From an uncultured virus (IMG/VR IMGVR_UViG_3300028591_000105) (Duplodnaviria > Heunggongvirae > Uroviricota > Caudoviricetes): DNA of 23,088 nucleotides. Under the pieces are notes generated by a model. It worked only from the letters and a program-made list of their open reading frames with translations. It had not been told where the DNA came from and made no database searches. A program made the position numbers and the translations under genes. The stretch lies in IMG/VR virus record IMGVR_UViG_3300028591_000105. One strand, written 5' to 3'. Each line of letters opens with the position of its first letter. The first letter of the stretch is position 1. This document shows, piece after piece, positions 4,067 to 21,743 of this stretch.

Positions 4067-4187
4067 TCTCGCATTTTTTTTCTATAGCATATAGCCAAAG
4101 TATTATTAAATTATGAACAGCGCGCCGGCAGAGGTTAGCATATGCCAACCGCACAGAAAGTTCAGAAAACTTTGTGCAATTTACCTA

Positions 4188-4216
4188 TTGCAATTCTTTT
4201 TAAAATATGCTATAAT
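4188..4216 (+). promoter_or_regulatory. sigmaA-type promoter
   Basis: TTGCAA-N17-TATAAT preceded by AACTTTGTGCAA box. Confidence 0.8.
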
Positions 4217-4247
4217 ATATATAGAAAAATAGAAAGGACTTGATATA

Positions 4248-4679
4248 ATGAACAAAATCATCAACTTTGACCTTGACGGCACAATTGCTGACCTCTACGG
4301 TGTGACTAACTGGCTTGATTATCTTGAAAGAAGTGACCCTTATCCTTATGCAACCGCTAAACCCCTTGTCAATATGTCTGCACTTGCAAAAGTATTAAAC
4401 AAGCTCCGCCGCGAGGGGTGGACAGTTAATATAATATCATGGCTGTCAAAAACTTCCACCCCTGAATATGACAAAGCGGTTACAACTGCTAAAAAGAAGT
4501 GGTTAGGCAAACATTTGAAAAGTGTCAAGTTTGATAATATTTACATAGTGCCTTATGGTACACCTAAGTACACATTATCAAGTGGCATACTTTTTGATGA
4601 TGAAATAGGAAACCGCACCACATGGCAGGGGAAGGCGTATGACGTTGATAATATAATAGGTGTACTTCGTACACTTTAA
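4248..4679 (+). CDS. HAD-superfamily phosphatase, 5'(3')-deoxyribonucleotidase-like
   Basis: HAD motif I FDLDGT, motif II IIS, conserved K (AKKKWL) and motif IV LFDD. Confidence 0.8.
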   Translation: MNKIINFDLDGTIADLYGVTNWLDYLERSDPYPYATAKPLVNMSALAKVLNKLRREGWTVNIISWLSKTSTPEYDKAVTTAKKKWLGKHLKSVKFDNIYIVPYGTPKYTLSSGILFDDEIGNRTTWQGKAYDVDNIIGVLRTL

Positions 4680-8701: not shown

Positions 8702-8854
8702 ATGAAATTCTTAAAAGCAATCGCCGTTATCTTCTGCATAGTTGTTCTGTTTATGCCCGATGGCGTGTCTAATGCAATATGGAATATTTTTCAGTATATT
8801 TTTGCAATTATCGCTTTAATAATTTATCTGCCTACTATTGGCAAGAGAAAGTGA
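8702..8854 (+). CDS. Small two-helix membrane protein (50 aa)
   Basis: AAGGAG RBS; MKFLKAIAVIFCIVVLFMPDGVSNAIWNIFQYIFAIIALIIYLPTIGKRK*. Confidence 0.75.
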   Translation: MKFLKAIAVIFCIVVLFMPDGVSNAIWNIFQYIFAIIALIIYLPTIGKRK

Positions 8855-9025
8855 GGTATAACTGAGTGAGAACATTTGCTCTCACTTTTTTTATTAATTA
8901 GTTAAAATTTTTAACATTAGCGACCGGCCATCCTTTCATAATTTAGTCATATATTAGCAAAGTATGAACATGTGCAGGACCTATCCGGGCGCCGCGCTAA
9001 AGTATTAAAATGGTAATATGCTAAC

Positions 9026-9110
9026 GCTTTAAAGTGCTAAAATTTCATGCTTTAAAGTGCTAAAATTTCATACTTTAAAGTGCTAAAATTTCATACTTTA
9101 AAGTGCTAAA
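9026..9110. repeat. 23-bp tandem repeat x3.7
   Basis: RCTTTAAAGTGCTAAAATTTCAT at 9026, 9049, 9072 and partial at 9095. Confidence 0.95.
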
Positions 9111-9186
9111 TTGGTACTCGATAGACAAGATACGCACATTTCAAGGCAAGATCTGCGAGTTCTGTGCGAGGATGCAGATGCAGGCG

Positions 9187-9433
9187 GCAGCTAAGTAGGG
9201 GTAAGAAGTTGGGATAAGCTGCATCTGGATAAGCTAGAATAAGCTGGGTTAGGGTTAAGCTGCGAACTCCCCTAAGCTGCGACTCCTGTGTACTACTGCC
9301 GCGGCAGCTGCTTCTGGCTAAGCTAGGCTAGCTATTGCACTGTACTAAGCTGCGCCGGCGTGGAGTAGGAGTATGGAGTATACAGCTGCATTTTATGTCA
9401 ATTATTTGACAATTTTATAAAAAAATAAGCTGC
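9187..9433. repeat. Cluster of TAAGCTR / CAGCTR motifs
   Basis: About eleven such AGCT-centred motifs in ~250 non-coding bp. Confidence 0.8.
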
Positions 9434-9512
9434 AATGTCAAATAATTGACAAAGTAGCTCAAAAATTATAAAATTCAGTAAGAAAAATTGAAAAGAATTA
9501 CTAATACTAAGA

Positions 9513-9556
9513 AAAAACCGACAAAATCTCATCTAAAAACCGACAAAATCTCACTT
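9513..9556. repeat. 22-bp iteron-like repeats x2 (downstream of Rep-like gene)
   Basis: AAAAACCGACAAAATCTCAYYT twice in tandem. Confidence 0.9.
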
Positions 9557-9563
9557 AGAACTA

Positions 9564-10316
9564 TTATTTATTAAATTTTATCCCACTCTCATCTCCATAA
9601 AACTCTTCTTTTATTTCAATATCTTGTCTAATTCCATCAAAAAATTCTTGCATATCTTCATCATTATCATAAGAATCTTCCATTTTTAACATCTTTTTAG
9701 ATGGTTTATTGTCAATCCATTTAATCTAATATGAATAATAAGTACGTCCATTATTTAATTCGTGCGGCACTTCTTTTAAACCTAAAAGACCCAAATTCTA
9801 AAATAAAGATAACATAATATAGATACCACGCATATGTGCTTTCGTTTTCTAACCAAAGAACAAGGTACATAAAGAAGATAAAGTAAATTCAGCTTCTTCT
9901 CCACATATATTATAATATCTAGCTAAAACACTATATAAACTTGGCATTATGCCGCCACACTCCTTGTCAAACTATTTACTGTACTTAACTAATAATTTAA
10001 TTAAATTAATATCAAGGGCGGCATAATCTATCCCATAATAAATCTAATAAGACCTAGTCTTTTCATTTTCTGCAATATAATTATTTTTAATCAATGCAGC
10101 AATGGCGCGGCGCCAAGTATTATCTGATATACCTATAATCTCTATTGCATCCTTTATCTTGAAGCTGTTCTTATAAACGAAATAGTGTGCTTCATTAGGA
10201 TTCCATTTACTAATAGATAATAAATAAGCATAAACTAAATACTACTTTTCTGTAAGCGGACCTTTCTAATGTTTCTCATATGGTATTGTTTTATAATATC
10301 TTTCTGATACTGCCAT
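9564..10316 (-). CDS. Putative replication initiator / HTH DNA-binding protein, 250 aa, with 7 in-frame TAG (code 15)
   Basis: AGGAGG RBS, ATG 10316 to TAA 9564; the only interruptions are TAG; LTEK(TAG)YLVYAYLLSIS...IKDAIEIIGISDNTWRRAIAALIKNNYI resembles a wHTH initiator N-terminus; iterons on both sides. Confidence 0.85.
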
Positions 10317-10400
10317 AGTACCACCTCCTATTAATAAGTAGAAAATCCGAACTAAGTCTCTAAGTTGTCGGATATGTATATACAGATGTTAGTTGATGGA

Positions 10401-10510
10401 TAAAACCGACGAAATCTCACTTAGAAACCGACGAATTGTTACCTAAAAACCGACGAAACGTGACTTAAAAACCGATAAAATCTCACCTAAAAACCGACAA
10501 AATCTCACTA
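10401..10510. repeat. 22-bp iteron array x5 (putative replication origin)
   Basis: Consensus AAAAACCGACRAAATCTCACYT at exact 22-bp period (10401, 10423, 10445, 10467, 10489), followed by AT-rich tract. Confidence 0.9.
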
Positions 10511-10726
10511 TTTATATATTACTTTTTCCCAAAAAGTAATCAAAAAAGGTTTCGCGCTGCGCGCTCATGTTTCCTAAAAAATCCTACCCCTTATCAAAAA
10601 GCAACCAACCCCTCTTAAAAAAAAAGAGTGTCAAATAATTGACACCCCTTAATAAAACTAGCCCCTATTAAAAAATGAACCGACCCCTTATTGATAATTG
10701 TTTAAAGAATTTATTGACCCCGTTAT

Positions 10727-10843
10727 TTGACTAACTAATTAATTGACTAACTAATTAATTGACTAACTAATTAATTGACTAACTAATTAATTGACTAACT
10801 AATTAATTGACTAACTAATTAATTGACTAACTAATTAATTGAC
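10727..10843. repeat. Perfect 16-bp tandem repeat x7.3
   Basis: (TTGACTAACTAATTAA)x7 + TTGAC. Confidence 0.97.
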
Positions 10844-10880
10844 ATATGCGCGGTTGGGCTGGTGTATATTTTCTATCATT

Positions 10881-10954
10881 GGCATACATTTTCACTTATT
10901 AACATACATTTTCACTTATTAGCACTTATTTTCACTTACTAATACAAATTTTCA
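10881..10954. repeat. Imperfect 20-bp tandem repeat x3.7
   Basis: RRCATACATTTTCACTTATT-like units. Confidence 0.8.
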
Positions 10955-11142
10955 AAATAACCCCAAGTAACAATAAAGTAAAATTTAGTAGAACAAAGCC
11001 CCTATATTAAGGACCTAGGGAAAGCGAGCTAAGGTAGGAAAATTGAAGCCCACAAACTCAAAGTCATGGGACACTTCATATTTGCACTTCACAGCGGTAC
11101 TTTGTATTAATATTTAGTACGACCCTTAGTACACACCTTTAG

Positions 11143-11352
11143 TACTATTTCTACTTCTACTACTTCTTCTACTACTTCTTCTACTACTACTTCTATTTCT
11201 ACTCTATTCCCTTACTCTATTCTCCTACTCTATTCTTCTTTGTTTTTCCTCTGCCTCTCACGCCGGCCTACCCTATTCATTTTACTTCTATTTCTTACTC
11301 CTATTCTACTCCTATTCTACTCCTATTCTACTACTATTCTACTACTATTCTA
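11143..11352. repeat. Low-complexity pyrimidine-skewed tract (CTA/CTT/CTATT units)
   Basis: Very few G on the + strand; degenerate CTACTACTT and CTCCTATTCTA repeats. Confidence 0.85.
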
Positions 11353-11361
11353 CCACTTCCC

Positions 11362-11661
11362 TTATCCACTATACTCTATACTTATTCTTATCTATTCTTT
11401 TATTTGTCTTATATCCCATTTCTTTTCTTTACTTATTTTATTTATTGTACTATTCTAACTATCCCCTCTTAATAGATCATCTATTATTCTACTTAATCGT
11501 TCCTATACATTCTTTGTTTTACTTTTTACCAAATAATTCTCATACTGCAATACTACAATACCCCTTTTAGGCTCTGTAATACTTAATACATATTCCTTCT
11601 TTTCTCTTTTTAATCTATTATATTTATATCTTTCATTTTCCCAGTTCTTAACTACTTTCAT
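11362..11661 (-). CDS. Basic hypothetical protein, 99 aa, with 3 in-frame TAG
   Basis: AGGAGG RBS, ATG 11661; MKVVKNWENERYKY...NV(TAG)ERLSRIIDDLLRGDS(TAG)...KE(TAG)IRISIEYSG-TAA. Confidence 0.7.
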
Positions 11662-11773
11662 ATTTACCTCCTATAATACTTAATAAAAGATTATTTCCCA
11701 TAGTCAATTTTAAATACTCCACAAAAATTTTTTCTCTAAATTTTCTCATGCGGATAAAGAAATAAGAGAGTTA

Positions 11774-12667
11774 TTACAACTCTCCTATCTCTTTTTCAAT
11801 TTTTTCATAAACTTCTAGATAAAGGTCTAATGGGAAACTTGACACGAAATAACCTTCTTCTCTATGTTGTGCCGCCCAAGCAAAAGCCTCTTGGTCATAT
11901 TTACAATGCTCAATTTCTTCTAACCTATCACAAGATAACTTATGAAGATAAATACTGCCTTCTGTATTCCAAGGGCGGCGATAAATAATAGAATTGGTTA
12001 CATTAATAACTAATGCCATTAAAGCATATGTTGCTACTACCTCTGCAAAATCGTCCCAAGGGCGGTGTAGAGTATAAAGCTAATATCTTTTCCAATATAA
12101 ATATGAGGCTTCAATAAAACTTTTATACTACATTACTTCATTAGTAATCATACTATAAACTTTCTTTTTATCTACCTCACTCCACGGTATAGATTCGTCT
12201 TTCCTATCTGAAGTGCCGGCCTTGGGCCATCCAGTAAGTTCTGCAAAAGTAGAATAAGGACGATGGGAAACATGGTCTGGTCCGTGAGAAATAATTAATG
12301 GTTTATCGCCCCTCTAACTTATCCAGTTATCACATACAGAGCGTGAAGAAGCATTGACGTCATAGCTATAAGGTGAAATAAGATGAGCTTTTACTTCCTA
12401 ATATGGTTCTCTGCCGCCATAAGGAATATTTGGAATTATAATAGGTTCTATATCGTTAAATGCCATTGTATATTTAGCCTCCTTTCCTATTTGTATTAGG
12501 TCTCGATTATTGAAGTTATTTAAAAATTCACAACGCCGGCGCTCATAAAACTCTTCTGAAATATCTTGTGCCGGCGCTTCAGCTTGAGAAATTGCAGCTT
12601 CAAGCTATTTACGAGAATAATCTCTCCAGGCTTTTATAGTTGTAGCAAGTCTGTGGTATGATGCCAT
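11774..12667 (-). CDS. Hypothetical protein, 297 aa, with 5 in-frame TAG
   Basis: AGGAGG RBS, ATG 12667, in frame with track ORF 11774..12019 and interrupted only by TAG; ends TAA-TAA; second AGGAGG-ATG in frame at 12466. Confidence 0.8.
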
Positions 12668-12777
12668 TTTCATCCCTCCTTTTACTTTAAGGTAGAATTT
12701 TACTTAAAATTGTCTATATAGTAAAAACGGCGTAGTACTACGCCGCTAATACTTTAGGTATTATTATCTCTATCTTT

Positions 12778-13158
12778 TTACTCTTTGTCTTCTGCCGCCT
12801 TGCGTTTAGCTAAGCGTTCCTTGCGTTTGATAGTTTGAGGATCCTGACTGTAGGCATCAGCCTCATCATCTAGGTCATACGCAAGGACTTCTCTAACCTC
12901 ACCCTTAAACTTTCGTTGGCTATCGTACCAATGCTTACAAGTTCCATGAGCAACAACAACTAAGTCATGCTCAAATCCATCATCATCAAGAGCCTTTCCT
13001 ATTACGACTCCTACATCTGCATTACCTACCTGACGGACTTTTGTATATCTCTCGTTCAGGAACTCAGTAAGAGCATTGAAAAACTCTTCCTGAACGAGGT
13101 CTTGAATTTCGGACTTCTTTTTGATATTAGTGAGGTCAAGAAAAACCTTATCTTCCAT
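12778..13158 (-). CDS. Hypothetical protein, paralog of 5920 and 13251 genes
   Basis: 126-aa ORF; DLTNIKK, DDDGF, TCKHW motifs. Confidence 0.85.
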   Translation of the reverse strand: MEDKVFLDLTNIKKKSEIQDLVQEEFFNALTEFLNERYTKVRQVGNADVGVVIGKALDDDGFEHDLVVVAHGTCKHWYDSQRKFKGEVREVLAYDLDDEADAYSQDPQTIKRKERLAKRKAAEDKE

Positions 13159-13250: not shown

Positions 13251-13676
13251 TTAGAACTCAACGTCCTTCTCTTCTCTCTTTGCCTTGTCCTTCTCGATCT
13301 TTGCAGCTTTCTTAGAAGCAGCGTCAGCAGCCTTCTCTGCCTTCTCAATTACCCAGTCATCATACTCAGTACGAGCGGCATTAAAATCGAAGGCATCATA
13401 GTGACGCTTTGAAGTATCTCGAGTTACAAACTCAGGAACAGTTGCATTCATCTTAAAGCAGATAGGAAGAACCTCACCATCAACTACCGCATCAGCATAA
13501 TTTACTGCAATCTCATTAGTCTTAGACTGACCGCCAGTTCTTACCCAACCTACATTCTCCTCGCCATACTTCTCGGTAAGATACTCGAAGAACTCAGCCA
13601 TAATAGCTTCCTTAACTGCACTCTTTACCTTAGAAATAGTATTTACCTTGTCTACTACATACTCCATCTTTGCCAT
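13251..13676 (-). CDS. Hypothetical protein with K/A/E-rich C-terminal helix, paralog of 5920 gene
   Basis: 141-aa ORF, AAGGAG RBS; GEExV and EKA(E/K)...KI..DKA.RE.K tail shared with 5920. Confidence 0.85.
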   Translation of the reverse strand: MAKMEYVVDKVNTISKVKSAVKEAIMAEFFEYLTEKYGEENVGWVRTGGQSKTNEIAVNYADAVVDGEVLPICFKMNATVPEFVTRDTSKRHYDAFDFNAARTEYDDWVIEKAEKAADAASKKAAKIEKDKAKREEKDVEF

Positions 13677-16563: not shown

Positions 16564-16650
16564 ATATGAAAAACAGCCCACCACAAGGCAGGCTGTTTTA
16601 ACTATTTGACTTTAGCCCAAGTCAATAGGAGTGCTGAGCACGGAATTGCG

Positions 16651-16724
16651 TGGGAGATGGCAGACTCGAACTGCCAACCTCTCGCTTATCAGACGAGTGC
16701 GCTAACCTGTTGCGCCAATCTCCC
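16651..16724 (-). tRNA. tRNA-Ile(GAT)
   Basis: Cloverleaf; anticodon arm CTCGT-CT-GAT-AA-GCGAG; T loop TTCGAGT. Confidence 0.92.
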
Positions 16725-16730
16725 AAATAA

Positions 16731-16805
16731 TACCGCCGGAGAGACTCAAACTCTCACGCGGACTGGTTCGTAGCCAGTTGTCCTCACTAATTGGACGACA
16801 GCGGT
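16731..16805 (-). tRNA. tRNA-Arg(ACG)
   Basis: ACTGG-CT-ACG-AA-CCAGT; T loop variant TTTGAGT. Confidence 0.85.
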
Positions 16806-16809
16806 ATAG

Positions 16810-16883
16810 TACGGGATAAAGGACTCGAACCTTCAACTTACTGCTTAGAAGACAGTTGCTCTCTCCAATTGAGCTAATCCCGC
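16810..16883 (-). tRNA. tRNA-Arg(TCT)
   Basis: ACTGT-CT-TCT-AA-GCAGT; T loop TTCGAGT. Confidence 0.9.
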
Positions 16884-16945
16884 ATATCCCAACTTTAACC
16901 CAAGTTGGCAGGGTATTGACAATTGTAATCTAGGCTAAAGCCTAA

Positions 16946-17027
16946 TGGGAGCGGTTGGACTCGAACCAACGTAGACCGAAGCCACCGATTTTACAGACCG
17001 TTGCAATTGCCACTATGCGACACTCCC
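16946..17027 (-). tRNA. tRNA-Tyr(GTA)
   Basis: CGGT-CT-GTA-AA-ATCG with long variable arm. Confidence 0.9.
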
Positions 17028-17031
17028 ATAT

Positions 17032-17105
17032 TGGCAGGAGCGCTCAGAATTAAACTGAAGCCTGCGGTTTTGGAGACCGCCATTCTACCACTAAACTACG
17101 CCCCC
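17032..17105 (-). tRNA. tRNA-Trp(CCA)
   Basis: GCGGT-CT-CCA-AA-ACCGC; encoded 3' CCA; T loop variant TTTAATT. Confidence 0.88.
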
Positions 17106-17377
17106 ATGTCATCGAAGGAGCTACCTTCTAACGCTCGATGAGAAAGCGGTGTTTTCTATTAGGAAAAAAAACTACAAAGCCCCGTATTTCACCACCTATA
17201 CTCAAGGTTACTGCTCTCAGTCACAGCACTACTATTGAGACCGTCACGATTCTCAACTACCGTATTTCTATTCTTACAAGCTGAAATAAAGCCGGCATAT
17301 AGCTTAACGCCACAACATGCTTACGGACGACTTTAACTACGCTGTGCCGCCTCCAAGCTGATCGTTTGCAACCGATA

Positions 17378-17487
17378 GAGCTTTTTCAATTCTGCTCAGG
17401 AACACTACAATTAAGTAGATTTATGACTTATATTAGGGTCTAGTCACCAAAGACCTGTGGCAAGCAGTTTAATGTCTTACTCAGGAC
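17378..17487 (-). ncRNA. Three consecutive small H-type pseudoknot RNAs
   Basis: GTC-CTGAGTAA-GAC-ATTAAAC-TGCTT; GGTCT-TTGGTGACT-AGACC-CTAATATA-AGTCA; GTTC-CTGAGCA-GAAT-TGAAAAA-GCTC. Confidence 0.55.
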
Positions 17488-17502
17488 GAAGGTAGATGCA
17501 AG

Positions 17503-17573
17503 AGCTCCCACCCCGATTTGAACGGGGAGCAAGTGATTACAAATCACCTAGTTTACCATTAACCTACAGGAGC
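17503..17573 (-). tRNA. tRNA-Thr(TGT)
   Basis: GGTGA-TT-TGT-AA-TCACT; T arm CCCCG-TTCAAAT-CGGGG. Confidence 0.88.
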
Positions 17574-17788
17574 GTATGTCGTGGGCTGGGCTAAAGCACC
17601 ACTTAAATCCCACGACTGGTGATGATTATAGACACCTATATTGGGGGTGTCTGCCCTCTGGGAATAAAATTTTCGTTGCGCTCCGCAATTACTTACCCAA
17701 TTATTGTCCTCAACTCAATTAAGTCCCGCATGGACTATGTGGGCAGCCTTTTTACAACTTGTCGGTTGGATAGTTGTCAATCAATATC

Positions 17789-18405
17789 AGAACTTTCGTA
17801 CTCAACAACTTCATTAAGAACACACTATGAGTTTTTGTTCGCCCTACGGTCATAATATTCTCTGTTATTCGGTCATAGTGACGATAGGTCTGACCCCAAG
17901 GTAGCTAGCCCTGAAGTTCCTACCGCTGTCAAAGCACTAAAGGGAATTTGTTTACCCCAAACTTTCACCCAAACCATTCAGAATTATATCATCTTAGATT
18001 AAAATTTTCTTAAATTTTACTCTATATATTATAAAACTGTCCTCTTGGGCTACTCGCGCCGCCGTCTGGTTCCGCAGAGATTTCTCCCTACGTTATAGAG
18101 GAATCTTCCTTATTTTGCATTTCCTGCATTGGCTCACATCTTGCGGACGTGGTCTACAGGATTCTTCCCACTGGGCGTCTATTACGGAAGAAACCAGCTT
18201 AGCGCACTTTACAGACCATATTACTCCGTGCCACGACTTCTCTGTTGAGGATGCCCTCTTCCTAATAAACCTTAGATTTATCAGTAGCTGCCGTTTCAAG
18301 GTATCCCTATTACGACAACTAAGCAGTTCCGCCGCACCCATGCAAGGGTGGTTAGCCCCTCTGCACATGGATATAATATATTCTTAATGAAATTGTCAAG
18401 GTTCT
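17789..18405 (-). ncRNA. Large ornate ncRNA, ROOL-like (~620 nt)
   Basis: 27-bp terminal helix (18373-18399 with 17802-17828) in which every non-Watson-Crick pair is G.U on the minus strand; many internal hairpins; starts just after tRNA-Phe; size and tRNA-cluster context fit ROOL; family assignment from recalled motifs only. Confidence 0.7.
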
Positions 18406-18413
18406 TTGTAAAG

Positions 18414-18487
18414 TGGGTAAGACACGACTCGAACGTGCAACACATAGGGCTTCAACCTATTGCTCTTCCAATTAGAGCTACCTACCC
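18414..18487 (-). tRNA. tRNA-Phe(GAA)
   Basis: ATAGG-TT-GAA-GC-CCTAT; T loop TTCGAGT. Confidence 0.9.
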
Positions 18488-18656
18488 ATAATATACTATC
18501 GGCAATCCCAAACGATAGCTTTGATTACTTATATCTTGCAGGATACTTTTATCATTTGTACCACGCTAATACCCCTTCTGCAAAAGGGCGGTATCGGGAA
18601 TGGTTATCCACTTAGGTCTGCCGCATTTCCAAATCATGCGCGCCGCCCTGCACAAT

Positions 18657-18747
18657 TGGGCGACGAGGGACTCGAACCCTACACAGATTACTAAGTTCTT
18701 CGAGGAACTCTCTAACTCACTAAGTTTATCGACATTAGCAAGTCGGC
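18657..18747 (-). other. tRNA-like element: T arm and 3' end without a normal D/anticodon half
   Basis: 3' end AGGG-TTCGAGT-CCCT-CGTCGCCCA; upstream part does not fold into a canonical cloverleaf. Confidence 0.5.
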
Positions 18748-18818
18748 TAGTCTATGAAAGAATCGGACTTTCCTCTCATGGCTGAGAACCATGCGTTCTA
18801 CCACTAAACTAATAGACC
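18748..18818 (-). tRNA. tRNA-Glu(CTC)
   Basis: CATGG-TT-CTC-AG-CCATG; T loop variant TCCGATT. Confidence 0.82.
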
Positions 18819-18905
18819 ATAAGTTGCGAGGACTTAATTTCAGTTACCGTAATCCTCGCTATACGAGTAACAGAGCAAAGTTTCTTAGAAAACTTGCAAA
18901 GCCAA

Positions 18906-18987
18906 CGACTCTGACGGGGCTCGAACCCGCATATGTGTTTCCACTCGGAGAGACAGTCCGATGCCTAACCAATTAGACTACAGAGCC
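18906..18987 (-). tRNA. tRNA-Asp(GTC) with atypical long variable arm
   Basis: TCGGA-CT-GTC-TC-TCCGA, then GTG-GAAA-CAC hairpin; G73 discriminator. Confidence 0.82.
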
Positions 18988-19299
18988 ATACTATAAGCAG
19001 TTTACTGACAATACTTAGGTCATGTCTTATTTATACTCTTAGAACCGAGAGTAGGACAAGCTATTAGTTTTCTTAACTCAAACGTTTCGTACTATGTACC
19101 ATACTGTTGTATTGAAAAGAACTTGATAACTCTTTAAAGATAATCCTATACCTGATGCCCGCAAGGATGGTGCAACTCCGTCACTCCACTGTATATTGCC
19201 TGAAGCCAAAGCTCAGAACCTATTTTTTACAACCTTGGTTCTAGGTTGTGGAAGCTTTTCTGTAGGGAAAATGCCCATTCGATGGTTTACCAACCTTAG

Positions 19300-19372
19300 T
19301 ACACCAGACAAGACTTGAACTTGCACTCTCACAGATTAAGAATCTGTTGTTTTCCCATTAAACTACTGGTGC
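19300..19372 (-). tRNA. tRNA-Lys(CTT)
   Basis: ACAGA-TT-CTT-AA-TCTGT; T loop TTCAAGT. Confidence 0.88.
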
Positions 19373-21346: not shown

Positions 21347-21379
21347 ATTCTACCTCCTATTTATACATACGTTAGCTAG

Positions 21380-21743
21380 TGGAGAAGAGGGGAATCGAAC
21401 CCCTGTCCACAAAATCTCCAGCATACTTTCTACAAGGTTAGCTACGTCATTTTATCTTTCCTCGCCCTTCGCCGGCGCAGCAAACAAAAGGTTACGTCAA
21501 CTCACTTATACTTGTTGCATTGAGTAAGTACAACAATGAATAGCTTCTATATATAAATCAAAGATTACTGCAAATTGAAACTATCAGAACAAAGCAAATA
21601 ATCTTAGTGCCGACATAGCGCCGGCGCAGCCTTATGCTGCTAAAGTATTAACGTCGTTGTTTAATTTATAAATGCTTCGTAAGGTGATTGCCTACCCCTT
21701 GCTTATATACCTTATAATTCCATGTCGAAACCAATACTTCCCC
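21380..21743 (-). ncRNA. ssrA: tmRNA
   Basis: 5' GGGGAAGTATTGGTTTCGAC; 3' GGACAGGGGTTCGATTCCCCTCTTCTCCA; G3.U70 alanine identity pair; tag frame ...AAC GAC GTT AAT ACT TTA GCA GCA TAA (NDVNTLAA). Confidence 0.93.

Follow-up and report, generated by a model that had tools for sequence, protein, structure and literature searches.

Can a gene that is broken by TAG, and by no other stop codon, be read through to its end, and if so, does it stand alone in its genome or does it follow a rule that its neighbours merely fail to display? The question is raised by three minus-strand open reading frames (ORFs), encoding proteins of 250, 99 and 297 amino acids (aa), in a 23,088-nucleotide (nt) stretch of DNA from the uncultured Caudoviricetes virus IMGVR_UViG_3300028591_000105; this stretch, at its full length, is referred to here as the window. 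The original prediction, made from the letters of the window, took these ORFs for an island of TAG-to-glutamine recoding within a genome otherwise compatible with the standard code. Here we examine how the TAG codons are read, how far the recoding extends, and what the block that contains them may do.

Under the standard code (table 11) there are almost no ORFs over approximately 8,850-12,780 of the window, and when TAG is read as sense three emerge on the minus strand, at 9564-10316, 11362-11661 and 11774-12673. Just as had been described, they are interrupted by TAG only (7 + 3 + 5 = 15 codons), all of them end in TAA, and each has an AGGAGG-type ribosome-binding site, located 6-8 nt upstream of the start. 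The in-frame TAA/TGA count is 0/0 in all three, whereas in the two other frames it is 27/14, 19/4 and 23/16, gene by gene, and frames without in-frame TAA or TGA were recovered in 0 of 20,000 shuffles for each gene. The third gene probably starts at 12667 because its homologues begin MASYHRL; its TAG codons (23, 92, 120, 178 and 194) are numbered from the upstream ATG at 12673, which gives the 299-aa version referred to below.

The remaining genes of the window use TAG neither as a stop nor as a sense codon. The stops of the 40 accepted genes are TAA (33) and TGA (7), none being TAG, in keeping with the earlier statement that no called gene ends in this codon. TAG accounts for 15 of the 24 glutamine codons in the three recoded genes and for 0 of 82 in the other 37 (Fisher p = 2e-12), where its absence is a matter of construction because those genes were called under table 11. 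The other glutamine codons of the recoded genes are eight CAA and a single CAG, against 35 CAA and 47 CAG in the rest of the window, and third-position GC content (GC3) is lower in the recoded genes (0.24) than in the others (0.31). Where a table-11 ORF does stop at TAG, it is antisense or overlapping, lies within an RNA gene or represents a piece of one of the three recoded genes; in three comparison loci, 4 of 31 (L004), 5 of 37 (L011) and 8 of 29 (L019) table-11 ORFs stop at TAG.

The identity of the inserted residue is clearest for the 250-aa protein: of 414 candidates, 20 are homologues at E <= 0.001, all of them full-length. Codon 25 aligns with glutamine in 20/20 homologues, and at the six other TAG codons the homologues have Q, K, E, R, D or another polar residue. 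Because database proteins may themselves be code-15 readings, the DNA of the homologues was also examined. At codon 25 the window and two relatives (L005 and L010) have TAG, and six of the eight other sequences have glutamine encoded by CAA or CAG; over the 23 columns in which any of 11 sequences carries a TAG, the remaining sequences have glutamine in 27 of 178 cells, compared with a background of 2.1%. The 299-aa family (10 representatives), aligned as protein sequences alone, has glutamine at codon 92 in all nine covering sequences, at codon 23 in 6/8 and at codon 120 in 4/9, and the 99-aa ORF shares 84 of 98 residues with its homologue P0032 (94 of 98 when similar residues are counted), which has glutamine at all three TAG sites.

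Near-identical copies of the 250-aa gene in metagenomes provide an independent view of the same frame. Contigs from runs X2 and X3, which yielded one and the same contig and are perhaps a single data set deposited twice, cover 9463-10568 with 36 letters different from the window, and a contig from run X5 covers 9421-10568 with 39; all seven TAG codons of the gene are kept in the X2/X3 and X5 copies. Within the gene these copies show 17 differences, of which 15, spread over codons 52-245, are synonymous third-position changes and two are conservative replacements, whereas in either other frame only 2 of the 17 are synonymous (chance, 33%; P = 4e-6). Since the synonymous differences extend across the frame, the whole frame beyond the TAGs is under selection. 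As judged by comparison of sequences, the TAGs are shown to be real, conserved and translated as glutamine, and the three recoded genes are shown to be under purifying selection across them; on both the recoding and the residue at the TAG positions of full-length homologues, the original prediction was borne out.

How far this recoding reaches is best seen in a relative. The window belongs to a 158,846-bp contig. The phrog_20187 protein and members of the 250-aa family led to its relatives, which are IMG/VR records 125-179 kb in length. One of them, G001 (the record of locus L008), is 178,685 bp long with a CheckV completeness of 100%, and is syntenic with the window: homologues of the genes at 13251, 12778, 6848 and 5920 lie around two copies of the 250-aa family. 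Greedy ORF cover of G001 is 61.2% under code 11 and 87.2% with TAG as sense, against 65.5% in a TGA-sense control. The density of TAG is uneven, at 14-24 per 1000 codons over 0-50 kb and 100-110 kb and 1-5 per 1000 codons over 60-80 kb and 120-160 kb. Gene content was compared with TAG content by scanning 36 of the 80 non-straddling ORFs of at least 200 aa. TAG-bearing ORFs encode a sigma-like factor (24 TAG), portal (11), a virion protein (15), Dit (12), an amidase/endolysin (6), a DnaB-like helicase (3) and NrdD (2); the primase, both topoisomerase II subunits, a Sak4-like protein, ligase, dUTPase, thymidylate synthase (ThyX), methyltransferases and RNA ligases are TAG-free. Five G001 homologues of TAG-free window genes were checked: three likewise lack TAG and the other two carry a single one each.

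In the window itself, the gain in coding cover from reading TAG as sense is limited to 9001-13000, and the regions of the other 37 genes, none of which stops at TAG, are tiled equally well under both codes. No hallmark virion gene was found among the window proteins (Pfam, PHROGs); window homologues are found in IMG/VR records of 155-178 kb, and the relative G001 carries portal, virion, Dit and endolysin genes. A megablast of the whole window against phage records gave no match, and scans of viral contigs with single window proteins and with the 299-aa alignment gave no relatives. Because no window gene stops at TAG, the contig is 158,846 bp long, and the syntenic, complete G001 is recoded genome-wide, the block does not represent an island in a standard-code genome, and the window consists mostly of the TAG-poor part of a recoded one. 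The island is thus the local appearance of genome-wide recoding, and in this respect the original prediction has to be replaced. Its accompanying claim, that the standard code suffices to read the neighbouring genes, holds, and the higher coding density expected under code 15, confined to the TAG-bearing block in the window, is evident over G001.

What, then, does the TAG-bearing block encode? The AlphaFold2 (AF2) model of the 250-aa protein, with a predicted local distance difference test (pLDDT) score of 77, contains two predicted winged-helix units at approximately residues 20-98 and 103-221. In VIA, whose best matches lie at Z 8-8.9 overall, residues 22-98 match Crp-type winged helix-turn-helix (wHTH) domains (Crp, CooA, FNR; Z 8.5-8.9), with the N-terminal domains of plasmid initiators 4pta (Z 7.3) and 4pql and 4pt7 (Z 7.5-7.6) also in the lists, and residues 103-221 match TFE-alpha (Z 6.8). 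These Z values fall in the tool's 'common' range, so that they show a DNA-binding fold and not a function. Foldseek with the same model returned nothing from the PDB at E <= 0.001, and RepE/pi-type initiators were absent from the Foldseek and VIA lists, with no whole-length match. By sequence, the protein matches only HTH_36 in Pfam (E = 0.0014, below the cut-off) and a ScpB-like family in PHROGs (1.4e-5); NCBIfam and PDB sequence searches gave nothing relevant, and no Rep family was matched. The two other recoded genes are less informative. The 299-aa protein has no match in Pfam, PHROGs, PDB sequences, PADLOC or NCBIfam, its AF2 model is poor (pLDDT 59) and it shows no similarity to a same-sized neighbour in G001; the 99-aa protein belongs to no known family in Pfam or PHROGs.

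The layout of the DNA beside the 250-aa gene is conserved. All ten stand-alone members examined (one in the window, five in G001, and those of L001, L002, L007 and L004) have a 21-23-bp tandem array upstream, each with its own sequence. In nine of the ten the array comprises 4.2-4.9 copies at approximately -65 to -200 from the start, the five G001 paralogues each having their own 21-22-bp array of 4.2-4.8 copies; L004 is the exception, with 2.7-2.8 copies at -117 to -260. Four longer forms of the family (L003, L005, L009 and L010) have no such array, L003 offering only 260 nt of upstream sequence. Coupling of the predicted winged-helix protein to iterons is thereby shown for the stand-alone members from the arrangement of the loci. 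All five G001 paralogues contain in-frame TAG codons (3, 5, 2, 5 and 1), and a standard-code distant relative (L004/L006) has a TAG-free homologue beside NT5C and phrog_20187 genes, the same neighbours as in the window, which makes the gene a long-standing resident of the module. Only P0014, P0020, L003 and L005 carry an N-terminal GIY-YIG domain (PF01541), for which the window protein has no match. The fusions at L003 261-1307 and L005 9656-10702 lack upstream iterons and look like homing-endonuclease-type derivatives.

Our preferred interpretation, which we regard as probable, is that the window is a piece of a 158.8-kb animal-gut phage genome in which TAG is glutamine and not stop, and which carries an origin-like, TAG-bearing module. 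The phage would come from ruminant or other animal gut metagenomes. Most of the window would consist of TAG-free sequence, namely small accessory genes and a cluster of tRNA, ROOL RNA and transfer-messenger RNA (tmRNA) genes, that an unmodified host could translate. The two gene arms meet at the block, plus-strand genes ending at 8854 and minus-strand genes at 9564; here the proposed module would comprise the winged-helix gene with five iterons upstream and two downstream, the two further recoded genes and the repeat arrays. Because 15 of their 24 glutamine codons are TAG, the full-length products of the three genes need UAG suppression, and the genes therefore fall into a class expressed after the code switch, for which the phage might supply a suppressor from outside the window. 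We lean, if only slightly, towards a protein of 250 aa that binds the 22-bp iterons and controls or initiates replication. That the TAGs postpone synthesis of this protein until UAG suppression becomes available is a more tentative suggestion. It would be more speculative still, and in our judgement quite unlikely, that iteron-coupled tandem winged-helix cassettes form a hitherto undescribed family, multi-copy in large recoded gut phages, that is systematically kept behind UAG so that the code switch times origin firing or a change of replication mode in addition to virion assembly and lysis; were this so, the TAG-dense repeats 3' of the 99-aa gene could belong to the same control.

Several observations weigh against this interpretation. 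The block lies where transcription converges and where the cumulative GC skew peaks, near 9500, and by bacterial convention such a peak is read as a terminus and not an origin. Five cassettes of this kind in one genome, as found in G001, are odd for an initiator. The Rep assignment is drawn from architecture, the modelled fold matching generic wHTH domains with a best Z of 8.9. The TAGs may be neutral and not a timer, given the lower GC3 of the block and the almost complete replacement of CAG. Nor is the distribution of TAG in G001 entirely regular: this genome also has one TAG-free endolysin and a TAG-free ClpP-like head protease, so that the split into early and late genes is not clean. No gene for tRNA-CUA (0 of 10 tRNAs), a release factor or a glutamine-tRNA synthetase was found within the 23,088-nt window, so that the phage-supplied switch of the original prediction is inferred and not shown. 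Two relatives (G002:C4 and G003) have a tRNA-CUA; none was found in G001, G004 or G005, nor in the scanned loci of G006, a record that is 19% complete. The result for G001, complete and heavily recoded, was obtained with ARAGORN, with and without introns, and with the Rfam tRNA model, and profiles for RF-1 and Terminase_6N found no match in four relatives, G001 having no RF-1 domain. A phage-borne switch is therefore not universal in the group. In G006, the record that holds L007, a tRNA with anticodon UCA is found at L051 1499-1571, and the phage may therefore recode TGA rather than TAG.

Other explanations would account for some of these observations. One, that the three ORFs are decayed pseudogenes or undergo programmed readthrough in a standard-code genome, would fit the absence of a suppressor tRNA from the window and of a known family for two of the three proteins; it is made very improbable by interruptions that are TAG in 15 of 15 cases with no frameshift, by substitutions that are synonymous across the whole frame, and by full-length homologues with glutamine at TAG sites in a window where no gene stops at TAG. 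A regulatory role deserves more attention. The 22-bp repeats might be operators in place of an origin, with the 250-aa protein acting on them as an autoregulating transcription factor, in partition or by binding a terminus: the best fold matches are to the wHTH domains of transcription factors (Crp, CooA, FNR; Z 8-8.9), the repeats occupy the place expected of an operator, with a terminator-like hairpin on one side and the ribosome-binding site of the gene on the other, and both the five copies in G001 and the position of the block at the convergence zone and skew peak are compatible with such a function. We nonetheless hold this to be rather unlikely, since five direct repeats phased at 22 bp upstream, with further copies downstream, form the classic layout of an iteron replicon, a build of two winged helices suits the initiators P1 RepA, F RepE and R6K pi, and plasmid initiator N-terminal domains (4pta, 4pql, 4pt7; Z 7.3-7.6) are among the fold matches.

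A further explanation concerns the history of the block more than its function. The Rep-iteron unit could be a modular cassette exchanged horizontally among TAG-recoded phages, its TAGs having arisen from CAG by drift under AT pressure with no role as a timing device. In support of mobility, the 1.1-kb unit at 9421-10568 recurs with 36-39 differing letters in contigs that diverge beyond both of its ends, 16-bp palindromes bracket it, G001 holds five diverged copies whose iterons all differ, and in some relatives the protein is joined to a GIY-YIG nuclease domain; in support of drift, GC3 is lower in the block, which has 1 CAG to 15 TAG where other genes have 47 CAG and 35 CAA. Against mobility stands the TAG-free homologue of L004/L006, whose NT5C and phrog_20187 neighbours mark it as long resident, and the differing flanks are tandem repeats, which diverge quickly in any case. 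We regard an exchanged cassette as possible without favouring it, and it and our preferred interpretation of an origin-like module in a recoded genome are not mutually exclusive.

The features of the block, the tRNA array of the window and the paralogues in G001 are listed in Table 1.

Table 1. Coordinates of TAG-bearing genes, repeats and associated features. Positions refer to the window unless G001 is named.
Feature	Position	Strand	Remarks
Winged-helix (Rep-like) gene	9564..10316	-	250 aa; 7 in-frame TAG at codons 17, 25, 91, 115, 157, 173, 197; stop TAA
99-aa protein gene	11362..11661	-	3 in-frame TAG at codons 53, 69, 90; stop TAA
297-aa protein gene	11774..12667	-	5 in-frame TAG; stop TAA
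22-bp iterons	10401..10509		4.9 copies, 79% matches; 85-193 nt upstream of Rep-like start codon
Two more copies of same 22-bp iteron	9513..9556		Just downstream of Rep-like stop codon
Two copies of 16-bp palindrome TGTCAAATAATTGACA	9396..9451		Copies at 9396 and 9436
Third palindrome copy TGTCAAATAATTGACA	10623..10650 (copy at 10629)	-	Terminator-like hairpin and T-run, upstream of iterons
23-bp array	9027..9110		3.7 copies; zone where gene arms converge
Non-coding tandem array, 16 bp	10723..10843		7.6 copies; between 99-aa and Rep-like genes
Non-coding tandem array, 20 bp	10886..10954		3.5 copies; between 99-aa and Rep-like genes
TAG-dense tandem repeats	11140..11360	-	11-15-bp units; directly 3' of 99-aa gene
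Terminator-like hairpin	12726..12747	-	Between TAG-free 126-aa gene and first recoded gene
Array of 10 tRNA genes	16650..19372	-	Ile, Arg x2, Tyr, Trp, Thr, Phe, Glu, Asp, Lys; none with CUA anticodon
Paralogues of winged-helix protein (G001)	126719-127411, 129684-130412, 162444-163154, 163551-164363, 164971-165678		Five diverged copies

The palindromes at 9396-9451 and 10623-10650 bracket the Rep-iteron cassette. At 9396-9474 the TGTCAAATAATTGACA palindromes contain a divergent pair of sigma70-like promoter matches (11/12 each), one running antisense into the Rep-like gene at its 3' end and the other into a CAGCT-rich repeat zone at 9098-9391; the promoter scan gave 23 sites with 19.5 expected, which is not above chance. 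On the gene strand, the 221 nt of repeats at 11140-11360 contain 30 TAG, seven times the window mean; the opposite strand contains one. An ORF with five TAG at 9098-9391 and ORFs of 40-45 aa in the TAG-dense repeats were not accepted as genes, as both are low-complexity repeat sequence. In run X4, one contig joins 9416 to 13273 and skips 3,856 nt that hold the three recoded genes and the 126-aa gene; the joint is not used as evidence because it has only 20 letters on one side and may be a repeat artefact.

Elsewhere, the window encodes a MazE/AbrB-type antitoxin-like gene at 2170-2466 on the plus strand (PF04014, 3.3e-8; phrog_4681, 1.4e-17) and, at 4248-4679 on the same strand, an NT5C-type 5'-deoxynucleotidase gene (PF06941, 5.4e-6), for which a TAG-sense upstream extension (4113-4247) was discarded, the DxD motif coming after the ATG at 4248. 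A full-length ROOL RNA lies inside the tRNA array at 17810-18394 on the minus strand (RF03087, 246.7 bits against a gathering score of 99.1), and the table-11 ORF at 18093-18368 is not a gene because it falls within it. A phage-borne tmRNA is found at 21377-21743, also on the minus strand (RF00023, 114.5 bits), with the ARAGORN tag peptide AIHCCTYSMQQV.

Two kinds of known system invite comparison with the block. Iteron replicons are represented by P1 RepA with incC/incA, F RepE and R6K pi, and the window resembles them in its five 22-bp-spaced direct repeats upstream and further copies downstream, and in a protein of about 250 aa modelled as two winged helices. It differs from them in that this protein has neither a sequence match to a Rep family nor a whole-length fold match to the RepE/pi type, and in that relatives may have several copies in one genome (G001) or be fused to GIY-YIG. 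The use of TAG for glutamine beside genes that avoid it is a known, published phenomenon of gut phages. In alternatively coded phages, structural and lysis genes are recoded and replication genes 'variably' so, those of Lak being mostly recoded, with a switch proposed to depend on early production of a suppressor tRNA, aminoacyl-tRNA synthetase or release factor (Borges et al., 10.1101/2021.08.26.457843). The notion, also put forward in the original prediction, that early genes are readable by the unmodified host and later ones follow a switch agrees with that model. The phages studied here share with those code-15 phages an in-frame TAG read as glutamine, standard-code-compatible genes beside recoded ones, an animal-gut source, tRNA arrays, a tRNA-CUA in some relatives and, in G001, structural and lysis genes as the most recoded (10.1101/2021.08.26.457843). 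In contrast to those phages, the recoded genes within the TAG-poor region of the window form an iteron/winged-helix, origin-like module in place of structural or lysis genes, and no gene for a code change is seen in the window. A phAss-1-type phage with an alternative code, 135,976 bp in length and with TAG inside 41 ORFs, is likewise a large phage with TAG in a subset of its ORFs (PMC10607447); the likeness is one of the published description, and the DNA search of phage records with the window gave no match.

What is modestly new is the TAG-bearing cassette family of iterons and winged-helix protein: an unannotated family whose stand-alone members are paired with iterons of approximately 22 bp and which carries TAG even where its neighbours avoid it. 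For annotation, the consequence is that calling under table 11 misses or truncates three genes in the window and leaves about a quarter of the G001 genome without ORF cover. The interchange of TAG, CAA and CAG at an invariant glutamine, together with divergence that is nearly all synonymous, makes this locus a clean example of mixed code use in one phage. If the module is a replication origin, code switching in these phages would regulate DNA replication in addition to late functions.

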